From Escherichia coli (GTDB lineage: Bacteria; Pseudomonadota; Gammaproteobacteria; Enterobacterales; Enterobacteriaceae), in NCBI RefSeq assembly GCF_024502345.1, contig NZ_JALDNN010000001.1: DNA of 64,000 nt. One strand, given 5' to 3'. The position numbers and the translations under genes were made by a program. The notes beneath the pieces were generated by a model that was not told the origin of the DNA, searched no databases, and worked only from the letters and a program-made list of their open reading frames with translations. Shown piece after piece: positions 5,530 through 46,356 of the stretch; positions within the stretch are counted from its first letter, which is position 1; every line of letters starts with the position of its first letter.

Positions 5530-6792
<1,263 letters not shown>

Positions 6793-6803
6793 GGTAGGGT
6801 TAC

Positions 6804-7112
<309 letters not shown>

Positions 7113-7139
7113 TTGTCACCAATTGAATCACGGGAGTAA

Positions 7140-8447
<1,308 letters not shown>

Positions 8448-8452
8448 GGTAG

Positions 8453-9586
<1,134 letters not shown>

Positions 9587-9593
9587 GTAGCAG

Positions 9594-11073
<1,480 letters not shown>

Positions 11074-11108
11074 TTTTTTCGCATATTTTTCTTGCAAAGT
11101 TGGGTTGA

Positions 11109-11138
11109 GCTGGCTAGATTAGCCAGCCAATCTTTTGT
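11109..11138 (+). terminator. Hairpin plus T-tract between rpmJ and rpsM (partial terminator or attenuator)
   Basis: GCTGGCTA-GAT-TAGCCAGC followed by CAATCTTTTGT. Confidence 0.5.
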
Positions 11139-11210
11139 ATGTCTGTGCGTTTCCATTTGAGTATCCTGAAAACGGGCTTTTCAGCATGGAACGTACATAT
11201 TAAATAGTAG

Positions 11211-11576
<366 letters not shown>

Positions 11577-15041: not shown

Positions 15042-15260
15042 ATGAGCCGATATCAGCATACTAAAGGGCAGATAAAGGATAATGCGATAGAAGCATTACT
15101 ACATGATCCCTTATTCCGACAGCGCGTAGAGAAAAATAAGAAAGGGAAAGGCAGTTACATGCGAAAAGGAAAACATGGCAATCGGGGGAACTGGGAGGCC
15201 AGTGGCAAGAAAGTAAATCACTTTTTTACCACTGGTCTTCTGCTTTCAGGCGCTTGTTAA
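15042..15260 (+). CDS. arfA: Alternative ribosome-rescue factor A
   Basis: ORF track 72 aa [28 protein letters not shown]...; 4-bp convergent overlap with mscL. Confidence 0.9.
15197..15237 (+). promoter_or_regulatory. arfA intragenic stem-loop (known RNase III processing hairpin)
   Basis: 9-bp stem GGCCAGTGG / CCACTGGTC read in sequence inside the arfA 3' coding region. Confidence 0.5.
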
Positions 15261-15667
15261 GAGCGGTTATTCTGCTCTTTCAGCAAATCACGAATTTCTG
15301 TCAGTAATACTTCTTCTTTAGTTGGTGCAGGTGCGGCTGCTGGTTCTTCTTTTTTCCGATTCAGTTTGTTGATTAGCTTAATCGCCATAAAGATGGCAAA
15401 GGCCACAATCAGAAAATCAAAGACGTTTTGAATGAAGACACCGTAATGCATCACAACAGCAGGGATATCCCCCTGCGCATCGCGTAGCGTGACAGCAAAC
15501 TGTTTAAAATCGATCCCGCCAATTAATAAGCCCAGAGGAGGCATGATGATATCGGCAACCAGTGAAGAGACAATCTTCCCGAATGCCGCACCGATAATGA
15601 CACCCACCGCCAAATCCACCACGTTCCCGCGCATCGCAAATTCGCGAAATTCTTTAATAATGCTCAT
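15257..15667 (-). CDS. mscL: Large-conductance mechanosensitive channel
   Basis: ORF track 136 aa [33 protein letters not shown]... Confidence 0.96.
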
Positions 15668-24927: not shown

Positions 24928-26469
<1,542 letters not shown>

Positions 26470-26537
26470 CCTTAAAGAAGCGTTCTTTGCAGTGCTCACA
26501 CAGATTGTCTGATGAAAATGAGCAGTAAAACCTCTAC

Positions 26538-26614
<77 letters not shown>

Positions 26615-26656
26615 AATTTGCACGGCAAATTTGAAGAGGTTTTAACTACATGTTAT

Positions 26657-26732
26657 GGGGCTATAGCTCAGCTGGGAGAGCGCCTGCTTTGCACGCAGGA
26701 GGTCTGCGGTTCGATCCCGCATAGCTCCACCA
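26657..26732 (+). tRNA. alaU: tRNA-Ala (TGC anticodon)
   Basis: GGGGCTATAGCTCAGCTGGGAGAGCGCCTGCTTTGCACGCAGGAGG...CTCCACCA, 76 nt. Confidence 0.95.
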
Positions 26733-26915
26733 TCTCTGTAGTGATTAAATAAAAAATACTTCAGAGTGTACCTGAAAAGGTTCACTGCGAAGTTTTGCTC
26801 TTTAAAAATCTGGATCAAGCTGAAAATTGAAACACTGAACAACGAAAGTTGTTCGTGAGTCTCTCAAATTTTCGCAACACGATGATGGATCGCAAGAAAC
26901 ATCTTCGGGTTGTGA

Positions 26916-29818
<2,903 letters not shown>

Positions 29819-29910
29819 ACAACGCCGAAGGTGTTTTGGCGGATGAGAGAAGATTTTCAGCCTGATACAGATTAAATCAGAACGCAGAAGCGGTCTGATA
29901 AAACAGAATT

Positions 29911-30030
29911 TGCCTGGCGGCCTTAGCGCGGTGGTCCCACCTGACCCCATGCCGAACTCAGAAGTGAAACGCCGTAGCGCCGATGGTAGTGTGGGGTCTC
30001 CCCATGCGAGAGTAGGGAACTGCCAGGCAT
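29911..30030 (+). rRNA. rrfD: 5S ribosomal RNA
   Basis: TGCCTGGCGGCCTTAGCGCGGTGG...GGAACTGCCAGGCAT, 120 nt. Confidence 0.96.
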
Positions 30031-30042
30031 CAAATTTAGCGT

Positions 30043-30118
30043 GCTGATATGGCTCAGTTGGTAGAGCGCACCCTTGGTAAGGGTGAGGTCCCCAGTTCGA
30101 CTCTGGGTATCAGCACCA
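30043..30118 (+). tRNA. thrV: tRNA-Thr (GGT anticodon)
   Basis: GCTGATATGGCTCAGTTGGTAGAGCGCACCCTTGGTAAGGGTGAGG...CAGCACCA, 76 nt. Confidence 0.94.
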
Positions 30119-30155
30119 CTTTTTAGGTTAAAGTTCGGCAGATTAGAAAAGAATT

Positions 30156-30275
30156 TGTCTGGCGGCAGTAGCGCGGTGGTCCCACCTGACCCCATGCCGA
30201 ACTCAGAAGTGAAACGCCGTAGCGCCGATGGTAGTGTGGGGTCTCCCCATGCGAGAGTAGGGAACTGCCAGACAT
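30156..30275 (+). rRNA. rrfF: 5S ribosomal RNA, second distal copy
   Basis: TGTCTGGCGGCAGTAGCGCGGTGG...GGAACTGCCAGACAT, 120 nt. Confidence 0.95.
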
Positions 30276-35562: not shown

Positions 35563-38500
35563 TTATCCTTTAAAGCAACGGCGGATCACCACAAAGAACA
35601 CCGGTACGAAGAAGATTGCCAGCAACGTTGCAGAGACCATTCCTCCCATTACCCCGATACCCACAGCGTTCTGCGCGCCACTGCCGGCACCGTTACTGAT
35701 AGCCAGCGGTAATACGCCGAGAATAAAGGCGAGAGAGGTCATCAGGATAGGACGCAGACGCATACGTACTGCCATTAGTGTCGCTTCAACAACACCTTTA
35801 CCCTCTTTCTCCATGAGATCTTTAGCGAACTCAACAATCAAAATAGCGTTTTTGGCCGACAAGCCAATTGTCGTTAGCAAGCCCACCATAAAGTAGACGT
35901 CATTTTTTTGATTAAAGAGTGTCGCCGCCAGCAGCACGCCGACAATCCCTAACGGCACGACCAACATAACCGAGACAGGAATTGACCAGCTTTCATAGAG
36001 TGCAGCAAGGCACAGGAAAACAACCACAAAGGAAATTGCTACCAGAGCGGGAGCCTGGTTTCCCGATAAGCGTTCCTGATACGACATACCCGTCCAGTCA
36101 TAACCAATGCCCGCAGGTAATTTTGACGCAAGGTTTTCCATCAACGCCATGGCATCGCCGGAACTGGTTCCTGGCGCGGCTTCCCCCTGAATCTCCATTG
36201 ACGGCAGACCGTTGTAGCGTTCCAGTCGCGGAGAGCCATACACCCAATGTGAAGTGGTAAAGGCAGAGAATGGCACCATTTCGCCGTTGGCGCTGCGGAC
36301 ATAAAGTTTATCGACATCTTCTGGCAGCATACGGAATTTGGCATCCGCCTGAACATACACCTTTTTCACGCGACCACGGTCGATGAAGTCGTTAACGTAA
36401 GTCCCACCCAGCGCCGTTGAAATGGTCTGATTGATGTCAGAAAGTGAAACACCTAATGCCTGCGCCTTTTCCTGGTCAACTTCCAGTTTAAACTGCGCGG
36501 TGTCTTCCAGGCCATTAGGACGCACGCTGACTAAGCTGGCAGGATGTTGCGCCGCCATACCAAGCAACTGGTTACGGGCCTGGGTTAGGGCATCGTGACC
36601 CAGCCCAGCCTGATCAATTAACTCAAAGTCGAAACCCGTTGCCGTGCCCAGTTCAACAATGGCTGGCATATTGAATGGAATGACAAAACCGTCGCGGATC
36701 TTGCCCAACTCCATTTTGGCACGATGGATTACCGCTTCCGCACTGTTTTCGTCACCACTACGCTCTTCCCACGGTTTCAGACTGACGAAGGCCATACCGG
36801 CGTTTTGTGCCTGGCCGCTGAAGCTAAAGCCGTTAACCGTAAAGACACTTTCAACGTTTGCTTTCTCGTTCTTCAGATAGTAATCCGTCACTTGATCCAA
36901 CACTTTTTGCGTCCGCTCTTGCGTCGCGCCAGCGGGTAACTGAATCATGGTCAGAAAGACACCCTGATCCTCTTCAGGTAAGAAGGAAGACGGAAGACGT
37001 AAAAACAACACCACCATTCCTGCAACAATCAGCGCATAGATCAGTAAATATCGTCCTGTGGAACCGAGGATTTTGCCGACGCTGTTGGTGTAGTGGTTAA
37101 CGCTATGATCGAAGGTGGTATTAAACCAGCCGAAGAAACCGCCCTTATTTTCGTGATGCTCAGCAGAGACGGGTTTAAGCAGCGTTGCACATAACGCAGG
37201 GGTAAGAATCAATGCCACCAGAACAGAAAGCGCCATTGCCGAAACGATGGTGATAGAGAACTGGCGATAAATTGCCCCAGTAGAACCGCCGAAGAATGCC
37301 ATCGGAATAAATACCGCTGACAGCACCATCGCGATACCCACCAGTGCGCCCTGAATTTGCGACATTGATTTTTCCGTCGCTTCTTTTGGCGGGAGCTTAT
37401 CCTCCATCATCACGCGCTCGACGTTCTCCACCACCACTATCGCATCATCGACGAGCAGCCCGATGGCAAGCACCATCCCGAACATCGTTAGTGTGTTGAT
37501 GGAGTAACCAAAAGCGGCGAGGATGGCAAACGTCCCTAACAACACCACGGGTACCGCAATGGTGGGGATCAGCGTTGCTCGCATATTCTGCAAGAACAGA
37601 TACATCACCAGGAACACCAGCATAATAGCTTCGAACAGTGTTTTTACCACTTCGTGAATAGAAAGCTGGACGAATGGCGTGGTGTCATAAGGGTAGAGAA
37701 CCTTCATTCCCTGCGGGAAGAATGGCTGTAATTCCGCCAGTTTTGCCTTAATGGCTTTCGCGGTATCGAGAGCATTCGCGCCGGTTGCCAGCTTAATCCC
37801 CAGGCCCGCCGCCGGTTTTCCGTTGATACGAGCGATAACGTTATAGTTTTCACCGCCAAGTTCAACCCGTGCGACATCTTTCAGGCGTACCACCGAGCCG
37901 TCACTGTTTACGCGCAGGGTCACTTTGCCGAATTCTTCCGGATTTTTTAACCGCGTTTGAGCAATAATCGAGGCATTCAACTGTTGCCCTGGTAACGCTG
38001 GCGTTCCGCCCAACTGTCCGGCAGCGATCTGATCGTTCTGTACCTTCAACTGGTTAATCACATCAACCGGTGTCAGTTTATATTTGTTTAGCAGATCGGC
38101 GTCCAGCCAGATACGCATCGCATACTGTGCGCCGAAAAGCTGTACGTCACCGACGCCATTCAGACGGCTAAGCGTATCTTTAACGTTAGAGGCCACATAG
38201 TCCGAGATATCGTCCTGTGTGGTGTCTGGGTTATCAGAGACAAAGCCCGCCACCATCAAATAGCTGCTACTGGACTTTTCAACACTGATCCCCTGCTGCT
38301 GAACCTCCTGCGGCAGCAACGGCGTGGCGAGCTGGAGTTTGTTCTGCACCTGCACTTGCGCGATATCAGGATCGGTCCCGGACTGGAAGGTAAGGGTAAT
38401 TGTCACGCTACCGGCGGAATCGCTGGTGGAGGACATATACATCAGGTTATCGATACCATTCATATTCTGTTCGATAACCTGCGTCACCGTATCCTGCACG

Positions 38501-38667
38501 GTCTGCGCATCAGCACCTGGATAGTTTGCCGAAACAGAAACCGCAGGCGGTGCAATGGTTGGATACTGAGCGACGGGCAATTGTAGGATCGCCAGTGCGC
38601 CCGCCATCATCAGAATAATGGCCAGCACCCATGCAAATATCGGTCGTCGAATAAAAAAGTTTGCCAT
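35563..38667 (-). CDS. acrF: RND multidrug efflux transporter AcrF
   Basis: ORF track 1034 aa; AcrB-family. Confidence 0.96.
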
Positions 38668-38678
38668 GTCAGATTACC

Positions 38679-39836
38679 TTACTTCGATGCAGTATCTGCG
38701 GGGGTATCGGTAGTGGCTTTAACCTGCTCTCCCGGACGCGCTTTTTGCAGGCCGCTGACAATGACTTGATCGCCAGATTTCAGACCTTCGCTAATCAACC
38801 ATTTATCGCCAATCGCCTGACTGGCAACGACAGGGCGCGCTTCCACCTGACTTTTATCGTTAACAATCAGCACGGTTGCATCACCACGCGGTGTGCGGCT
38901 AACGCCTTGTTGCGGGATAAGAATGGCGTCAGGTTGGACGCCTTCATCAATCCGTGCACGCACAAACATACCCGGCAAAAGCGTATGTTGCGGGTTAGGG
39001 AAGACAGCACGTAGGGTTATGGAGCCGGTGCTTTCATCAACGGTCACATCAGAGAATTGCAGCGTACCTTTCAGGGGATAGGTTTGACCGTTTTCCATGA
39101 CCAACTCTACGTTGCTGGTGGCGTTTTCCTTATGCAAATTTCCTTGCTCTACGGATTGCTTCAGCCTCATAAAATCGTTGCTGGATTGGGTCACATCAAC
39201 GTAGATAGGATCGAGCTGCTGGACAGTCGCCAGTTCAGTCGTTTGCCCATTAGTGACAAGAGCGCCTTCGGTCACGGTCGATTTGCCGATACGTCCGCTA
39301 ATTGGCGCAGTCACTTTGGTATAAGCGAGATTGATGCGAGCGCTTTCGACTGTGGCTTTTGCGGCAATCACGGCGGCATCGGCCTGGCGAGCATCAGCAA
39401 TGGCCTGGTCGTACTCCTGCTGGCTGATGTATTTCGTACCCACGAGCGGAACGTAACGTTTTACCGTCAAATGCGCGATGGCGGCGGCGGCTTCACTTTT
39501 CGCCAGTTCGCCTTTCGCGCTGTCATAATTTGCCTGATAGGTCGCGGGATCGATCTGGTACAGGGACTGGCCTGCTTGTACATCGCTGCCTTCAGTGAAA
39601 TTACGATTCAGTACGATCCCGCTAACCTGTGGGCGAACTTCGGCTATACGGTAAGCATTGGTGCGGCCTGGTAATTCAGTCTTAACTTCTAACGGGGCCG
39701 TTTTCACAATATGAACGGTAACCTGCGGTTCACCGACGTGAGCTTTCTCTTCTCCCTTATCGTTACAACCGGCGATTAAAGCCGCGGAGATCAGAATAAA
39801 GGAGGGCAGGAGGAAAAACCTGGCATGTTTCGTCAT
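38679..39836 (-). CDS. acrE: Periplasmic adaptor (membrane fusion) protein AcrE
   Basis: ORF track 385 aa with lipobox LIAGC. Confidence 0.96.
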   Translation of the reverse strand: MTKHARFFLLPSFILISAALIAGCNDKGEEKAHVGEPQVTVHIVKTAPLEVKTELPGRTNAYRIAEVRPQVSGIVLNRNFTEGSDVQAGQSLYQIDPATYQANYDSAKGELAKSEAAAAIAHLTVKRYVPLVGTKYISQQEYDQAIADARQADAAVIAAKATVESARINLAYTKVTAPISGRIGKSTVTEGALVTNGQTTELATVQQLDPIYVDVTQSSNDFMRLKQSVEQGNLHKENATSNVELVMENGQTYPLKGTLQFSDVTVDESTGSITLRAVFPNPQHTLLPGMFVRARIDEGVQPDAILIPQQGVSRTPRGDATVLIVNDKSQVEARPVVASQAIGDKWLISEGLKSGDQVIVSGLQKARPGEQVKATTDTPADTASK

Positions 39837-40258: not shown

Positions 40259-40267
40259 GCTCTGAAG
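40259..40267. repeat. 9-bp target-site duplication GCTCTGAAG (left copy)
   Basis: Identical 9-mer directly flanks both IS ends. Confidence 0.9.
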
Positions 40268-40285
40268 GGCTTTGTTGAATAAATC
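40268..40285. repeat. IS903 left terminal inverted repeat
   Basis: GGCTTTGTTGAATAAATC. Confidence 0.9.
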
Positions 40286-40299
40286 GAACTTTTGCTGAG

Positions 40300-41268
40300 T
40301 TGAAGGATCAGATCACGTATCTTCCCGACAACGCAGACCGTTCCGTGGCAAAGCAAAAGTTCAAAATCACCAACTGGCCCACCTACAATAAAGCCCTCAT
40401 CAACCGTGGCTCCATAACTTTCTGGCTGGATGATGAAGCTATTCAGGCCTGGTATGAGTCAGCAACACCTTCTTCACGAGGCAGACCTCAGCGCTATTCT
40501 GACCTTGCCATCACGACTGTGCTGGTCATTAAACGCGTATTCAGGCTGACCCTGCGCGCTGCGCAGGGCTTTATTGATTCCATTTTTTCTCTGATGAACG
40601 TTCCGCTACGCTGCCCGGATTACAGCTGTGTCAGCAGGCGGGCAAAGTCGGTTAATGTCAGTTTCAAAACGCCCACCCGGGGTGAAATCGCACACCTGGT
40701 AATTGATTCCACCGGGCTGAAGGTCTTCGGTGAAGGCGAGTGGAAAGTCAAAAAGCATGGCCAGGAACGCCGCCGTATCTGGCGTAAGCTGCATCTCGCC
40801 GTTGACAGTAAAACACATGAAATCATCTGCGCTGACCTGTCGCTGAACAACGTTACGGACTCAGAGGCCTTCCCCGGGTTAATCCGGCAAACCCACCGGA
40901 AAATCAGGTCAGCCGCCGCCGATGGCGCTTACGATACCCGGCTATGTCACGATGAACTGCGGCGTAAGAAAATCAGCGCGCTTATCCCTCCCCGAAAAGG
41001 TGCGGGTTACTGGCCCGGTGAATATGCAGACCGTAACCGTGCAGTGGCTAATCAGCGAATGACCGGGAGTAATGCGCGGTGGAAATGGACAACAGATTAC
41101 AACCGTCGCTCGATAGCGGAAACGGCGATGTACCGGGTAAAACAGCTGTTCGGGGGTTCACTGACACTGCGTGACTACGATGGTCAGGTTGCAGAGGCTA
41201 TGGCCCTGGTACGAGCGCTGAACAAAATGACGAAAGCAGGTATGCCTGAAAGCGTGCGTATTGCCTGA
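40300..41268 (+). CDS. IS903-family DDE transposase
   Basis: ORF track 322 aa (MKDQITYLPDNADRSVAKQKFKITNWPTYNK...); the track start is a TTG codon, true initiation codon uncertain. Confidence 0.88.
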   Translation: MKDQITYLPDNADRSVAKQKFKITNWPTYNKALINRGSITFWLDDEAIQAWYESATPSSRGRPQRYSDLAITTVLVIKRVFRLTLRAAQGFIDSIFSLMNVPLRCPDYSCVSRRAKSVNVSFKTPTRGEIAHLVIDSTGLKVFGEGEWKVKKHGQERRRIWRKLHLAVDSKTHEIICADLSLNNVTDSEAFPGLIRQTHRKIRSAAADGAYDTRLCHDELRRKKISALIPPRKGAGYWPGEYADRNRAVANQRMTGSNARWKWTTDYNRRSIAETAMYRVKQLFGGSLTLRDYDGQVAEAMALVRALNKMTKAGMPESVRIA

Positions 41269-41306
41269 AAACACAACCCGCTACGGGGGAGACTTACCCG
41301 AAATCT

Positions 41307-41324
41307 GATTTATTCAACAAAGCC
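41307..41324. repeat. IS903 right terminal inverted repeat
   Basis: GATTTATTCAACAAAGCC, exact reverse complement of the left IR. Confidence 0.9.
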
Positions 41325-41333
41325 GCTCTGAAG
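41325..41333. repeat. 9-bp target-site duplication GCTCTGAAG (right copy)
   Basis: Identical to 40259-40267. Confidence 0.9.
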
Positions 41334-42228: not shown

Positions 42229-43113
42229 TTACTTTGCAATGAGATCGGGGTCAACTTCGCTTAACCGGCTTCGTTTTGACAGGTTGCCGGTCTTTCTTTT
42301 TTTCACTTTCGCCAGTTCTTCCGCAGAGTAATGCGACGCGACATCCAGCCGTCGAAGCCCCATTTTGATGTACTCGCTGTTGATCTCAATACCAATGAAT
42401 TTTCGCCCGCTGGAGACGGCTACGGCACCGGTAGTAAAGCTACCGGCAAACGGGTCGAGAACGATATCGCCTGGGTTGGAAGAGGCGAGAATAATGCGTT
42501 TCAGTAAGGCTTCCGGTTTTTGCGTCGGGTGGTTTTCATATTCATCCATCAAATAACGCACGCGCGGAAAATCCCAGACGTTACCCGGTACTTTTTGATG
42601 ATTGTAAGGCTGTGGAGGATTTTTGCGATAATCGATCAACGCGCGCTGCGATCCGGTTTTGGCTTCTACCAGAATAGCATCACCGTTGAACGTGTAGTTC
42701 TTTGCGTCTTTCACCATCATCAGGATGGGTTCATACATGGAACCGTAGTGTTTTTTCGCCTGCACTCCAGAACTGTCATATGACCAGACGATGCGACTTT
42801 TGATGGTAAAAAGCTTGCGGCACTGGAGATCGATAAAGGGCATGTTTTCCGTACTGTTCATGATGTACATGCTGCCCTGCTTTTTCAGAACGCGGTGGCA
42901 CTCTGCAATCACTTCAAACAGCCAGTCGATAAACAGATCTTCTTTCCAGGCTTCGATCAGACCATCAAAATTTTTACCGATGTTATACGGTGGGTCGGCA
43001 AAGATCAGATCGACGCTTTCAGTAGGTAGCTTTTTAAGTTCGGCAAGGGCATCACCGTGAATAATGGTCTTAGCTTCATTACCAAACCGGGTCGGTTCAC
43101 ATCCTGTTCTCAT
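42229..43113 (-). CDS. yhdJ: DNA adenine (N6) methyltransferase YhdJ
   Basis: ORF track; DPPY catalytic motif (IFADPPYNIGK); start set at ATG 43111-43113. Confidence 0.92.
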   Translation of the reverse strand: MRTGCEPTRFGNEAKTIIHGDALAELKKLPTESVDLIFADPPYNIGKNFDGLIEAWKEDLFIDWLFEVIAECHRVLKKQGSMYIMNSTENMPFIDLQCRKLFTIKSRIVWSYDSSGVQAKKHYGSMYEPILMMVKDAKNYTFNGDAILVEAKTGSQRALIDYRKNPPQPYNHQKVPGNVWDFPRVRYLMDEYENHPTQKPEALLKRIILASSNPGDIVLDPFAGSFTTGAVAVSSGRKFIGIEINSEYIKMGLRRLDVASHYSAEELAKVKKRKTGNLSKRSRLSEVDPDLIAK

Positions 43114-43132
43114 GGTCACTCCCTTTGTGACA

Positions 43133-43177
43133 CCTATAAAAAAGGCGCTTCCCCATGCCGAGTAGCGCCTTTTTAAT
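43133..43177 (-). terminator. Intrinsic terminator that in K-12-like genomes lies directly after fis; here on the far side of the insertion
   Basis: 8-bp stem AAGGCGCT / AGCGCCTT with 14-nt loop, T-tracts on both sides. Confidence 0.7.
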
Positions 43178-43197
43178 CAAGCATTTAGCTAACCTGA

Positions 43198-43214
43198 ATT
43201 AGTTCATGCCGTAT
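43198..43214. repeat. 17-bp direct repeat TTAGTTCATGCCGTATT, distal att-like copy
   Basis: 17/17 identical to 45069-45085, which is the fis stop codon plus last codons. Confidence 0.85.
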
Positions 43215-43382
43215 TGTAAAATACAGAGTCATTATACGTAATTTATTATCACTCTAGATAATTTGTATTCATCATAAATAATTGATGCGGAAAGAGATAT
43301 TTATTTTTTATTGGCTCGCATTGTATCATCAGTTATCAGTTACTCCCTGCATACAGTTGTCAAAAAGGTTGTCATTAACTCT

Positions 43383-43551
43383 ATGGCCGAAAATAAACTC
43401 TCAGATGTTCAATTGCGTGCGTTAACCCGCAAAGTCATCGAAAAACCTTTTGATGTTGCTGACGGTGGCCAAGTTGGGTGAAAACCTGCTATGCAGCTAC
43501 CGCATAAGGGTAGTGGATTCCGCTGAAATCTTGCCGTTCATCCGATCATAA
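43383..43551 (+). pseudogene. Tyrosine-integrase N-terminal (arm-type DNA-binding domain) fragment, frameshifted and truncated
   Basis: Hand translation: MAENKLSDVQLRALTRKVIEKPFDVADGGQVG-stop, then +1 frame LGENLLCSYRIRVVDSAEILPFIRS; resembles the EKPY..DG(N/G)GLYL...WxxRY pattern of P4-type integrase N-termini. Confidence 0.45.
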
Positions 43552-43575
43552 CATCACAACAGTTGTTGCCCATTA

Positions 43576-43606
43576 CCCTGGCGAATGCCGGGGCTTTTTT
43601 TATTTT
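43576..43606 (+). terminator. Candidate intrinsic terminator downstream of the integrase fragment
   Basis: Imperfect stem CCCTGG..CCGGGG followed by CTTTTTTTATTTT. Confidence 0.3.
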
Positions 43607-43619
43607 CAAAGTGACGCCT

Positions 43620-43923
43620 AGGTGTCATTAATTTATAAGGTGTCATGGTAGGTGTCATTGTTCTCAAGCCATAACCCGCAAGGGTTGCGACATTACTAAT
43701 GACACCTATGACACCTATGACAGCATTTTTAAAGAAAATAACGACCACTGTAATAATGTAACAGTGGTCGTTATACTTTATAGAAATGGGTGTCATGGTG
43801 TCACAGGTGTCATTCATTACAGTATCTTGTTTGTATTTTTCTTTAATAATCAGCGTGTTTCCCGCTATGACACCTAATGACACCTTTCCAACATAACGCC
43901 GTCATGGTGACATTAGGTGTCAT
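43620..43923. repeat. Array of 13 copies of the 9-bp motif AGGTGTCAT in both orientations
   Basis: Forward copies at 43620, 43638, 43650, 43789, 43797 (GGTGTCAC), 43805, 43906 (GGTGACAT), 43915; reverse ATGACACCT at 43699, 43708, 43717 (degenerate), 43867, 43877. Confidence 0.85.
43738..43774. repeat. Perfect palindrome with 14-bp arms and 9-nt AT-rich loop, at the centre of the motif array
   Basis: ATAACGACCACTGT-AATAATGTA-ACAGTGGTCGTTAT. Confidence 0.85.
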
Positions 43924-44274
43924 CGCCATCTGCTGCCAAAAAAGTCAAGGTACTTCCGAGGGGGGTACAGCCTGCGGGGGCATTGGTCCCGCGTAATTCG
44001 CGTTGTGCGTGCCCCTACAAAACTCACTTTATGATTACGTCAAGTAAATCAATCATTTATGTGAATCCTATCAAAGCACTGGCACCATACGTGCGCGATT
44101 GCAAAATAAAGCGAACACGTTTTACACACGCTGAATTGTAAAGATGTGTAAATATCGATTACGCCGGATTATGCCGGGTTATTTGCAAGTATTCAGGGTT
44201 ATAAGTTACTGATTTTACATTAAAAAGCTCACATTGTGGCTATTGTGTTCGGTCTGGTTACTGTATATCTTTAA

Positions 44275-44991
44275 GTCATTCCAGGCGATTTAGCTGGCCT
44301 GGCGCTGGCAGGTTATCAGATTTACCGCCATTGGGCTGGTGTGAAGGCTTTCTTTGGCGGAGTGGGTGAAGGCATCAAATCCGGGCTGGAACCGCTTAGC
44401 GACGCTCTGAGCCGCCTTTATGAACGCATGGGGCCGCTGAAACCTGTCATTGATGGTGTGGGTGCTGCGGTTAAGACGGTTTTCAACTGGTTCACGTCAT
44501 TGACCGAGCCGGTCAAGTACAGTGGCGAGGAACTGGATAAGGCCGGTAAAATGGGGATGACGTTCGGTAAGACCCTGGCGGCTGGCATCGAGCTTGTGAC
44601 CGCACCGATCACGTTCCTGATTGATAAGATTCTGTGGGTGTCTGACAACATCGGCAACCTGACCAACAAGGCACTGGAGTTTAAAAACGCCGTGTCTGAT
44701 GTTGCTGGTGGTGCGTGGCAGAAAACCAAAGATTTCTTTACCGCACCATTCCGCGACGATGTACAGCAGCCAGCAGCAACCACTGCCTCTGGTGCTGCCC
44801 TGCCGTCACCTGCACTGGCCAACCGCTCTGGTGGCACTACGGTGCATAGCAACGACCAGTACCACATCAGCGTGAAGGCAGAACCTGGTATGAATGAAGA
44901 TGCATTAGCCCGGAAGGTGATACAGCAACTACGACAGCAACAAGCAGTAAGGCAGCGAAGCATGATGATAGATGGCGCGCAAACACCATAA
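44275..44991 (+). pseudogene. 5'-truncated ORF, possibly a phage tail tape-measure-like protein C-terminal region
   Basis: Frame is open from 44275 (stop at 44272-44274) with no good start or RBS; Gly/Ala-rich and hydrophobic segments (GVGAAVKTVFNWF, ITFLIDKILWV); product guessed from composition only. Confidence 0.35.
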
Positions 44992-45068
44992 GGGTTGTCA
45001 GTACGGTTGCAACAAAAAGTAAAGGGACTGAAATAGCCCCTTTAATTTCATGCCGTTACAGCTTGACT

Positions 45069-45085
45069 TTAGTTCATGCCGTATT
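45069..45085. repeat. 17-bp direct repeat TTAGTTCATGCCGTATT, fis-proximal att-like copy overlapping the fis stop codon
   Basis: Reverse complement encodes ..K-Y-G-M-N-stop of Fis. Confidence 0.85.
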
Positions 45086-45365
45086 TTTTCAATTTTTTAC
45101 GCAGCGTACCACGGTTGATGCCCATCATCAGCGCAGCACGGGTCTGGTTACCACGGGTGTATTGCATCACCATGTCCAACAGGGGCTGTTCTACTTCAGC
45201 CAGTACCAGCTCATAGAGGTCATTCACATCCTGACCATTCAGTTGAGCAAAATAGTTCTTCAGTGCCTGTTTAACCGAGTCACGCAGGGGTTTTTGGGTT
45301 ACCTGATCCTGAGAGTTAACGGTAGAAACGGTCAGTACGTCAGAATTTACGCGTTGTTCGAACAT
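45069..45365 (-). CDS. fis: DNA-binding nucleoid protein Fis
   Basis: ORF track 98 aa [51 protein letters not shown]... Confidence 0.97.
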
Positions 45366-45390
45366 AGTTCTGTCAGCTCTTTATTTCTGT

Positions 45391-46356
45391 TTACGCAAAA
45401 TTTTCGAAGTATGCCTCCAACGCCTCCAGCTGTTCGCTGGCATCCTCAATGGCGTTGAATGTGCGCCGAAACTGGTCATTGGGAGCGTGTTCCTGGAGAT
45501 ACCAGGAAACGTGTTTACGTGCAATTCGGTACCCTTTTGCCGGACCATAAAAGTCATGCAGTTCCCGAACGTGCGCGCAAAGCAAGCGCTTAACCTCTGC
45601 CAAAGGCAGCGGGGGCAGCAACTCCCCAGTGTCCAGATAATGCTGGATTTCCCGAAAGATCCAGGGTCTTCCCTGAGCTGCGCGGCCTATCATCAGGGCA
45701 TCCGCCCCTGTATAGTCGAGCACAGCTCTGGCTTTAAGCGGGTCAGTAATGTCGCCATTCGCGATAACCGGAATGGAAACTTTCTGCTTAACTGCCTGAA
45801 TACTGTCGTACTCAGCTTCTCCATTGAACAAACAGGCGCGTGTACGGCCATGAATGGTCAGAGCCTGAATGCCACAGTCTTCAGCCAGTTGGGCAATCTC
45901 TTCGCAGTTACGGTGTTCCGGCGCCCAGCCAGTGCGAATCTTCAGGGTAACAGGAACGTCCACTGCATTGACGACCTCGGTAAGGATCGATTTAACGACT
46001 TCCGGGTACTGCAAGAGGGCTGAACCTGCGAGCTTGCGATTCACTTTTTTAGCCGGGCAACCCATATTGATATCAATAATCTGGGCACCGCTTTCCACGT
46101 TAATACGTGCTGCATCTGCCATTTCTTTCGGATCGCTACCGGCAATTTGCACGGTGCGAATACCGGGTTCATCAATGTGCACCATCCGTAAACGAGATTT
46201 ATCGCTTTCCCAAACTTGTGGGTTAGAAGACATCATCTCGGATACTGTCAATCCGGCTCCCATCTCGTAGCACAACGTCCGAAAAGGTCTGTCTGTAATG
46301 CCAGCCATGGGCGCTGCGATCAGGCGATTTCTGAGCTGATATTGTCCGATGCGCAT
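45391..46356 (-). CDS. dusB: tRNA-dihydrouridine synthase B
   Basis: ORF track 321 aa; upstream gene of the dusB-fis operon. Confidence 0.95.

Follow-up and report, generated by a model that had tools for sequence, protein, structure and literature searches.

A 1.87-kb insertion at the 3' end of fis in Escherichia coli: very probably the decayed remnant of a fis-PICI-group island

What is 1.87 kb of foreign DNA doing at the very end of fis, the gene of a global regulator, and what was it before it reached its present state? The question is raised by a stretch of 64,000 nucleotides from Escherichia coli (contig NZ_JALDNN010000001.1 of assembly GCF_024502345.1; we call this whole 64-kb stretch the window), in which an exact 17-mer, TTAGTTCATGCCGTATT, is present twice, at 43199-43215 and at 45069-45085. 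Our answer, which we hold with high confidence, is that positions 43199-45085 represent the non-autonomous remnant of a phage-inducible chromosomal island (PICI) of the published fis-PICI group, derived from a 9573-bp parent through two deletions.

The repeat, the boundaries and the empty site

The features that define the edges of the insertion are these:

43114-43198, minus strand: native fis-yhdJ spacer with the original fis terminator hairpin, 85 bp, joined directly to the 3' end of fis in 5361 of 5426 complete E. coli genomes
43199-43215: yhdJ-side att copy, adjoining the integrase remnant; the exact 17-mer, duplicating the last fis codons and stop and corresponding to the fis-PICI block aatacggcatgaactaa
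45042-45056: third, incomplete copy of the core, TTAATTTCATGCCGT, lying 26 bp within the element
45069-45085: fis-side att copy, made of the actual fis stop codon and last codons
45069-45365, minus strand: fis, intact at 98 aa, the target gene, outside the element

The 17-mer has a chance expectation of 0.01, two or more matches were seen in none of 100 shuffles, and the window holds no third copy at up to two mismatches; identity between the two copies stops at both edges and extends not one base further. The initial annotation had already drawn attention to this repeat, and its right-hand copy stands exactly as described: its reverse complement reads AA-TAC-GGC-ATG-AAC-TAA, that is, the (K)YGMN-stop that ends the intact fis ORF. 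The left-hand copy, however, had been placed one base too early, at 43198-43214, and two neighbouring values shift a little with respect to what had been claimed, namely the native fis-yhdJ sequence to its left, which is indeed there but measures 85 bp rather than about 84 bp (it had been drawn at 43114-43197, and yhdJ starts at 43113), and the insert, which is about 1.87 kb as proposed but 1870 bp rather than some 1871 bp. This start-to-start spacing of 1870 bp comprises 1853 bp of foreign DNA and one copy of the repeat.

How precise is the insertion? When 43116-43215 was joined to 45086-45185, the resulting 200-bp synthetic empty site had a contiguous match, for the most part at 100%, in 5361 of the 5426 complete E. 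coli genomes (98.8%). In genomes with an empty site, K-12 W3110 among them, the match to the window breaks off precisely where the left 17-mer ends. The boundary against the uninterrupted attB of reference genomes is the end of the 17-mer itself, and the empty-site count bears out the idea that the DNA entered by recombination within a 17-bp core that rebuilds the 3' end of fis. The native terminator hairpin now lies 1.87 kb away from the gene that it once followed, and the element-borne hairpin at 45020-45044 probably replaces it and terminates fis transcripts. The partial core copy may be an additional binding site for the integrase. As a side observation, the native 3' region of fis gives a weak, sub-threshold match to STnc40 in Rfam.

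Both the kind of element and the use of the fis terminus as attB by Gram-negative PICIs are already known, having been catalogued in 2023. Tommasini, Mageeney and Williams (2023, NAR Genom Bioinform, PMC10111431) record 3565 fis PICIs with the consensus block TACGGCATGAACTAA, and their supplementary table includes many E. coli fis GIs of 9-10 kb with the block aatacggcatgaactaa, several of them 9573 bp long; our 17-mer is the exact reverse complement of this latter block. That an att site should lie where the gene of a global regulator ends had been regarded as not commonly described, a view that does not survive the 3565 fis GIs given in that paper (PMC10111431).

Residual parts, intact parent and intermediates

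Within these boundaries we recognise the following, with coordinates of the intact relative in NZ_CP019280.1 (L001) where they help:

43383-43469, plus strand: 5' remnant of the integrase gene, its first 29 codons, followed by three out-of-frame codons and a stop at 43479-43481
43466-43469: deletion junction 1, 4-bp microhomology TGGC, 3737 bp lost
43470-43551, plus strand: 3' end of the gene after vapE (74 aa), without a start codon (CDS in L001 at 15071-15295)
43576-43602, plus strand: terminator-like hairpin with a T-run, ending the replication module
43619-43926: iteron array in which (A/T)AGGTGTCAT recurs in both orientations, 10 times perfectly and about 3 times in degenerate form
43939-44011: cos-like packaging site, 97-99% identical to the Jilinvirus phages ep3, ECO1230-10 and HeidiAbel_Bas97
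43977-43989: putative 13-nt cohesive end, GGGGCATTGGTCC; the linear record of ECOO78 has this 13-mer at both ends
44012-44290, plus strand: non-coding leader of the late operon, collinear with L001 15756-16036 and upstream of the 294-aa late gene; the operon itself is deleted
44291-44292: deletion junction 2, 2-bp microhomology TA, 3966 bp lost
44293-44991, plus strand: 3' fragment of a tail tape-measure gene, codons 531-762 (232) and the stop, 100% identical to L001 20003-20701
45020-45044: element-borne hairpin with T-runs on both strands, ending the tape-measure gene; a terminator-like site of 10 base pairs on the minus strand

The 1870-bp insert is made up of three pieces that are collinear with the intact element of L001, at 100%, 99.4% and 100% identity. 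Window positions 43000-43469 correspond to L001 11007-11476 and positions 43466-44292 to L001 15210-16036, the tape-measure fragment being the third piece, and both junctions were placed by BLAST breakpoints together with the junction sequences, which are spanned by the strings GCTGACGGTGGCCAAGTTGGGTGAAAAC (junction 1) and CCAGGCGATTTAGCTGGCCTGGCGCTGG (junction 2). The first deletion took alpA, hyp93 and vapE whole, together with the remainder of int and the greater part of hyp74, and the second removed six small late genes together with the first 530 codons of the tape-measure gene; the arithmetic closes exactly, as 9573 - 3737 - 3966 = 1870. What is left is attL, 29 int codons, the iterons of the putative origin, the cos-like block, 232 tape-measure codons, a terminator and attR. 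The integrase remnant, motif array and truncated ORF that had been noticed at the outset are all present, and the broader suggestion of a decayed integrative element holds up, given that all three blocks are collinear with an intact 9573-bp element at fis. Of the integrase gene, destroyed in the window, the 29 surviving codons sit in the right place and orientation and are 100% identical to those of the 411-aa gene in L001, and alpA (PF05930) is absent from the window, having been lost in the first deletion. The mechanical ORF in the tape-measure fragment spans 44341-44991 (216 aa, GTG start). The 109-aa ORF at 43554-43883 on the minus strand, whose counterpart in the intact relative (L001 15298-15627) RefSeq annotates as a CDS, is probably spurious.

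The parent, with att copies at L001 11206 and 20779, carries in order int, AlpA, a VapE primase/helicase, the predicted iteron origin, the cos-like site, the six small late genes and the tape-measure gene. Its integrase (L001 11390-12625, 411 aa) matches the PHROG integrase family (PHROG_1) as well as PF00589 and PF13356, its AlpA is PF05930, its VapE matches PF05272 and a PHROG primase (1e-82), and its full tape-measure protein matches PHROG_28 at E=3e-103. The 93-aa protein between alpA and vapE is without a family match, and the six small late proteins gave no informative match in PHROGs, NCBIfam, Pfam or PADLOC. Because these late proteins lack a family match, the designation of the parent as a putative satellite leans on its architecture, its AlpA, its size and the published catalogue.

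Longer elements had been expected at this site, and they exist: the intact element is found there at 95% identity or more in about 48 complete E. coli genomes, and a diverged variant occupies the same fis site in 17 complete genomes. In addition, there are intermediates. The exact 216-aa truncated tape-measure ORF sits beside an intact int-alpA-vapE block in four loci (L007, L010, L013 and L014) that bear the second deletion only and in which PF05930 alpA was found, and another locus (L006) combines the same truncated ORF with a different int truncation. The exact configuration of the window, at 100% over 2401 bp, recurs in L005, L008, L009, L011 and L012, and is found in none of the 5426 complete E. 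coli genomes, so that its distribution is known from draft and metagenome contigs only.

Candidate origin, packaging site, helper and history

The iterons surround an AT-rich palindrome at 43724-43788, and the motif GGTGTCAT has 10 of its 14 window copies within the array, where chance would give 1.65 copies in all 64 kb. In the intact element the Rep gene (the VapE primase/helicase) is followed closely by the array; in the L002 variant, with a Rep of 46% identity, the same position is taken by another iteron, ACTCGCCACC. It is this position and the co-variation with Rep that lead us to read the array as a likely replication origin. The satellite iteron GGTGTCAT, sought in the genome of HeidiAbel to see if a helper of this kind might activate the origin of the remnant, is absent there; the phage has a repeat cluster of its own, GGTGAC(C/A)A, at 38461-38766. 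An Rfam search of window positions 42900-45500 and of the parent returned only sub-threshold miRNA-like matches, at the origin palindrome, and the weak STnc40 match.

Which phage might have mobilised such an island? In Jilinvirus phages the block that matches 43939-44011 sits in the spacer between the lysis genes and terS, and a cos function for it seems likely from this resemblance. The helper would be a Jilinvirus-like temperate myophage, since the 97-99% identity of the cos block is joined by homology between VapE and the phage primase and by homology of the tape-measure and TerS proteins. Indeed, the C-terminal 400 aa of VapE are 65% identical to the primase of HeidiAbel_Bas97 (locus tags Bas97_), for which a deposited genome record exists, the tape-measure protein is 43% identical to that of this phage in the parent and 61% in the L002 variant, and the TerS of L002 is 53% identical in the same comparison. 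The parent subgroup has its own full-length, diverged tape-measure protein, and it is a testable possibility that such a satellite protein might enter helper tails, for example altering the requirements for DNA entry or escaping exclusion. Our searches for literature on a PICI with a tape-measure gene, or on a satellite of Jilinvirus, retrieved nothing relevant, and an E. coli PICI subgroup linked to Jilinvirus-type myophages by cos, primase domain, TerS and tape-measure is not discussed in the literature searched. In the main text of PMC10111431, 'tape measure' has zero matches, and the sections examined do not take up the Jilinvirus-type cos of the subgroup.

On the reading that we favour, a 9573-bp satellite would have used its own tyrosine recombinase to integrate at an attB that the final 17 bp of fis provide, the presence of the same 17 bp in attP ensuring that fis was rebuilt, with the native terminator displaced and an element-borne hairpin put behind fis in its place. 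Illegitimate deletion at the TA microhomology would then have removed 3966 bp of late genes, and another at TGGC the 3737 bp of int-alpA-rep, presumably in that order, so that nothing but three gene stubs and the cis sites would have survived, namely attL, attR and the presumed ori and cos. As it is without integrase, excisionase and replicase, the remnant would be immobile on its own and inherited as chromosomal DNA.

Might it nevertheless move with the assistance of others? One can imagine a working mini-satellite that takes Int/AlpA and Rep from a related fis PICI, for example one next to it in tandem, and terminase from a helper, and so exploits a satellite that in its turn exploits a phage. 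All four cis sites (the att copies, ori and cos) are intact, tandem fis PICIs exist (L010 is an example, and PMC10111431 reports others), and the remnant is 100% identical across loci whose flanks differ by about 1.3%, which is compatible with recent horizontal spread. Perfect identity, however, begins at 42863 and ends only at 45480, overshooting the att copies by 336 bp on one side and 395 bp on the other. A tract of this extent is in keeping with import through homologous recombination rather than with a site-specific event, and as identity stays perfect for more than 330 bp past both copies we reject site-specific spread between lineages as the main route. In addition, the window houses no intact sibling, 1.87 kb is far below the headful of a phage of about 41 kb, so that concatemers of around 20 units would be needed, and the different iterons of the variants argue for a narrow Rep specificity. 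We consider such a life very improbable; if it were real, the remnant would move only in a cell that contained both a Jilinvirus-type helper and an intact fis PICI as its sibling.

We give still less credence to the idea that the DNA descends from a Jilinvirus-like prophage with its attB in fis rather than from a satellite. Both the tape-measure fragment and the cos block have homologues in Jilinvirus phages, but the intact relatives are just 9.6 kb long, with AlpA and an inward-pointing int, and are without capsid, portal, large terminase, baseplate or lysis genes: the parent has the tape-measure gene alone, and the L002 variant adds TerS. The HeidiAbel integrase, moreover, is only about 25% identical to that of the element and lies close to a tRNA-Arg gene in the phage genome, and the published survey found every fis GI free of prophage signature genes (PMC10111431). 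Nor is this an ancestral segment that K-12 and most strains have lost, or a transposon with a 17-bp target duplication, readings to which we attach next to no probability. A flanking repeat exists, and this is all that speaks for them; the precise empty site in 98.8% of complete genomes disposes of a universally present segment lacking a duplication, an outcome for which the initial annotation had advised a check, and the repeat is a conserved att block common to thousands of elements in several bacterial families. The element has neither a transposase ORF nor terminal inverted repeats, and empty-site count and published att block together refute both proposals.

The origin that we prefer, decay of a fis-PICI-group island, makes the window copy a dead member of a satellite family that is already catalogued, at a site that is catalogued too; fis is intact, and the copy as such would matter little. 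The locus nonetheless offers a decay series, 9.6 kb to about 5.6 kb to 1.87 kb, with base-exact junctions, and this series would illustrate how PICIs erode to scars of cis sites only, annotated as 'hypothetical protein' or 'tape measure protein'.

Comparison with known systems

The EcCICFT073-type cos PICIs of Gram-negative bacteria, reportedly the subject of work by Fillol-Salom and colleagues in 2018 and 2019, are alike in their int-alpA-primase/rep-ori-cos order, in being without a large terminase and in their presumed packaging by the cos machinery of a helper. They differ in their attB and in their presumed helpers, which are lambdoid siphophages as against the Jilinvirus-like myophages proposed for the fis parent; the latter also has a full tape-measure gene and no recognised Rpp-type redirecting protein. 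P4 shares with the parent a size of about 10 kb, a tyrosine integrase, an AlpA-like regulator, a primase-helicase, a cos of helper type and the rebuilding of the 3' end of its target gene. The cos of the fis parent, however, is not P2-like and its target is a protein gene, whereas P4 uses tRNA-Leu; with no PHROG match to Psu, Sid or Delta in the parent, and no P4-type immunity RNA (C4, isrK) found by Rfam in the window or in L001, we do not place it among P4-like satellites. Islands and prophages at the 3' ends of tRNA and tmRNA genes follow the same logic, with an attP that brings a replacement 3' end, a target that survives and a direct repeat left behind, but here the target consists of the last five codons and stop of a protein-coding global regulator, and a terminator is displaced.

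The closest known relatives are the fis PICIs themselves (for example 'EcoNNNN.10.fis' and Kpn47.16.fis), whose attB and block aatacggcatgaactaa are the same as in the window (PMC10111431). According to that paper, excision of Kpn47.16.fis at the block was demonstrated experimentally by Schoeniger et al. 2016, AlpA beside int is the signature by which its authors divide PICIs from prophages, and both tandem arrays and alpA-less fis GIs of less than 4 kb are reported; the exact 1.87-kb remnant is not among the fis GI table entries examined. Of the four zones in the published layout (Integration, Bro, Replication and Late), the parent has Integration, Replication and Late, no Bro-network gene having been identified between its alpA and vapE, and its 9573 bp equal the length of several listed E. 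coli entries (PMC10111431). The window copy departs from these relatives in its 1.87-kb length and in the loss of int, alpA and rep, and from its sequence we would file it as a deletion derivative of a member of the fis PICIs and not as a functional PICI, since alpA, absent from it, is yet present in the collinear parent and in the intermediates.

An insertion at the end of fis

The 17-mer TTAGTTCATGCCGTATT occurs as two exact copies in the window, at 43199-43215 (one base higher than the initial annotation had placed the left copy) and at 45069-45085, and no further copy with up to two mismatches is present there (chance expectation 0.01; none of 100 shuffles gave two). The identity is confined to these 17 bp and extends on neither side. 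As had been proposed, the right copy supplies the stop and last codons of fis, which is intact as a 98-aa ORF on the minus strand, and the native fis-yhdJ spacer with the fis terminator hairpin precedes the left copy (85 bp, 43114-43198). A weak, sub-threshold match to STnc40, a Salmonella sRNA family (43138-43205, minus strand; 25.6 bits, gathering score 45), sits on this native 3' spacer and terminator, a region that the insert parts from fis here.

A synthetic empty site, made by joining 43116-43215 to 45086-45185, was searched in 5426 complete E. coli genomes and is contiguous in 5361 of them, mostly at 100% identity. With the occupied locus as the query, empty-site genomes (including a K-12 W3110 record) align over query positions 1-116, and the match stops exactly where the left 17-mer ends. 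This makes the segment a 1870-bp insertion, comprising 1853 bp of foreign DNA and one repeat copy. The insertion suggested initially thus stands, at 1870 rather than about 1871 bp. The fis site is occupied in at least 64 of the complete genomes, a minimum, since a fis element that duplicates the entire spacer, as some do, would leave over 80% of the probe covered.

The parent element and its double deletion

The window's version of the element is absent from all 5426 complete E. coli genomes searched, and parts of it lie at the same locus in 65. The longer intact element that the initial annotation had suggested seeking at this site is found in strain 13P484A (NZ_CP019280.1, here L001), in which TTAGTTCATGCCGTATT at 11206 and 20779 flanks 9573 bp between yhdJ and fis; the reading of the insert as an integrative element is correct. 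It encodes, in order, a tyrosine integrase (411 aa), an AlpA-type HTH protein (59 aa), a 93-aa protein, a VapE-domain primase/helicase (562 aa) and a 74-aa protein. Non-coding DNA comes next, then six small genes (294, 104, 54, 149, 69 and 68 aa), whose products have no family match in PHROGs, NCBIfam, Pfam or PADLOC, and lastly a tail tape-measure protein of 762 aa, ending 77 bp short of fis.

Collinear blocks shared by the window and L001
Block 1: window 43000-43469, L001 11007-11476, 100% identity
Block 2: window 43466-44292, L001 15210-16036, 99.4% identity
Block 3: window 44291-45400, L001 20001-21110, 100% identity

Adjacent blocks share 4 bp (TGGC) and 2 bp (TA), the microhomologies at the junctions left by two deletions. 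The losses amount to 3737 and 3966 bp, and 9573 - 3737 - 3966 = 1870, the observed size; this sum and the collinearity together identify the window element as a double-deletion derivative of the 9.6-kb element.

Features of the 1870-bp remnant
43199-43215: distal att copy
43383-43469: integrase codons 1-29, in an out-of-frame fusion with a stop after three codons
43470-43551: last 82 bp of the 74-aa gene
43576-43602: terminator-like hairpin
43619-43926: iteron array, perfect and degenerate copies in both orientations around an AT-rich palindrome (43724-43788)
43939-44011: cos-like block
up to 44290: leader of the lost late operon
44293-44991: tape-measure codons 531-762
45020-45044: hairpin with T-runs on both strands
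45042-45056: partial third core copy
45069-45085: att copy completing fis

Ten of the window's 14 perfect copies of GGTGTCAT fall inside the iteron array (chance expectation for the whole window, 1.65). We infer that the array is a replication origin, because it directly follows the replicase module and because L002 (NZ_CP158323.1), a diverged variant at the same fis site with a 46% identical Rep, has a different iteron, ACTCGCCACC, in the same position; the flanking late genes of L002 and the parent are 86-98% identical, though the iterons differ. A 109-aa ORF (43554-43883, minus strand) runs over the iterons, and its L001 counterpart (15298-15627) is a RefSeq CDS, 'hypothetical protein'. Because its MTP repeats are translated iterons, it is probably a repeat artefact and no real gene. 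The hairpin at 45020-45044 lies directly behind fis, replacing the native terminator, and fis transcription would be expected to terminate there.

Spread of the remnant and its likely helper

The exact 216-aa truncated tape-measure ORF (44341-44991) occurs in at least 23 public contigs. In L007, L010, L013 and L014 it stands downstream of an intact int-alpA-hyp-vapE-hyp74 block, with late-gene deletion only; in L006 it accompanies a differently truncated integrase; and L005, L008, L009, L011 and L012 have the window configuration, 100% identical over 43000-45400. Since contigs exist with late-gene deletion alone, late-gene deletion would have come first and int-rep deletion later. In L010 (a Logan SRR21969523 contig), a second, different island, int-DUF6387-AlpA-AAA_25, follows the late-gene-deleted element at 5845-11361, a tandem arrangement at fis such as PMC10111431 describes.

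The chromosomal flanks of L008 and L009 differ from the window by about 1.3%, and the remnant is identical. Against L008, L009 and L012, a mismatch-free tract spans 42863-45480, running about 350 bp into each flank, in surrounding chromosome that differs by 0.5-1.3%. Because perfect identity runs beyond both att copies, this suggests that homologous recombination, rather than site-specific transfer, carried the scar from one E. coli lineage to another.

Elsewhere in the window, an IS5-family element of the IS903 group (40268-41324, 1057 bp; region 40259-41333) interrupts acrS/envR, which encodes the repressor of the acrEF efflux operon. Its terminal inverted repeats GGCTTTGTTGAATAAATC are 18 bp long and its target duplication GCTCTGAAG 9 bp; the transposase ORF lies at 40300-41268 (NF033579, E=6e-107). 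The element is absent from the related loci spanning the position (L005, L006, L008, L009, L011 and L012). A complete rRNA operon (24928-30273), whose spacer carries tRNA-Ile and tRNA-Ala and which ends with tRNA-Thr and a second 5S gene, is the usual rrnD-type arrangement and nothing unusual.

Escherichia phages ep3, ECO1230-10 and HeidiAbel_Bas97 match the 73-bp block at 43939-44011 with 97-99% identity and have it within the spacer that separates the lysis genes from the small terminase gene. The linear ECOO78 record has GGGGCATTGGTCC at both ends, and the same 13-mer, likely a cohesive end, lies at window 43977-43989. HeidiAbel, of Jilinvirus type, carries an integrase and a CI-like repressor and is temperate. 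Its primase is 65% identical to the C-terminal 400 aa of the parent VapE, its tape-measure protein is 43% identical over the full length to the parent's and 61% to that of L002, and its TerS is 53% identical to that of L002; the satellite iteron GGTGTCAT was not found in its genome. These likenesses point to Jilinvirus-like temperate myophages as probable helpers of this subgroup of fis PICIs (phage-inducible chromosomal islands at the fis 3' end). The parent (L001 11206-20795), which has their cos as well, brings its own full-length, 762-aa tape-measure gene, and in our literature search no paper turned up on a satellite of Jilinvirus or on a PICI with its own tape-measure gene.

The fis PICI among known elements

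An ancestral segment or a transposon is excluded, both by the empty-site frequency (5361/5426) and by the conservation of the att block in thousands of unrelated elements. The insert is unlikely to be what is left of a prophage: its intact relatives measure only 9.6 kb, with AlpA and an inward-pointing int and without capsid, portal, large terminase, baseplate or lysis genes, and the integrase of HeidiAbel, the candidate helper, is only about 25% identical to the element's. All cis sites are intact in the remnant, which would suit a still-mobilisable mini-satellite, and we nevertheless regard that reading as highly improbable. Membership of the P4 group fails, with no Psu, Sid or Delta homologue in the parent by PHROG search and no CI RNA in the window or L001 by Rfam.

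A degraded fis PICI, by comparison, is a familiar object. The initial annotation took the att arrangement to be unusual, a view not borne out by Tommasini, Mageeney and Williams (NAR Genom Bioinform 2023; PMC10111431), who mapped 3565 fis-integrated genomic islands (GIs), with the fis terminus as attB, and named them fis PICIs. Their consensus identity block at the fis terminus is TACGGCATGAACTAA, within which Kpn47.16.fis excises, an earlier experiment of Schoeniger et al. 2016 as cited there. The same article reports AlpA in nearly all fis PICIs and no prophage tail signature, as well as tandem arrays and fis GIs below 4 kb that lack alpA; its PICI Late zone, which captures helper late genes, covers a tape-measure gene in general terms, and the term 'tape measure' has zero matches in the main text. 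In its supplementary table, many fis GIs of 9-10 kb from E. coli and E. albertii carry the block aatacggcatgaactaa, which is our 17-mer in exact reverse complement, and several measure exactly 9573 bp (for example, Eco10649.10.fis, Eco14137.10.fis and Eco269.10.fis). Site, mechanism and parent element were thus on record before, and the window holds one more eroded copy: a degraded fis PICI, real, ordinary and of an already-described kind.
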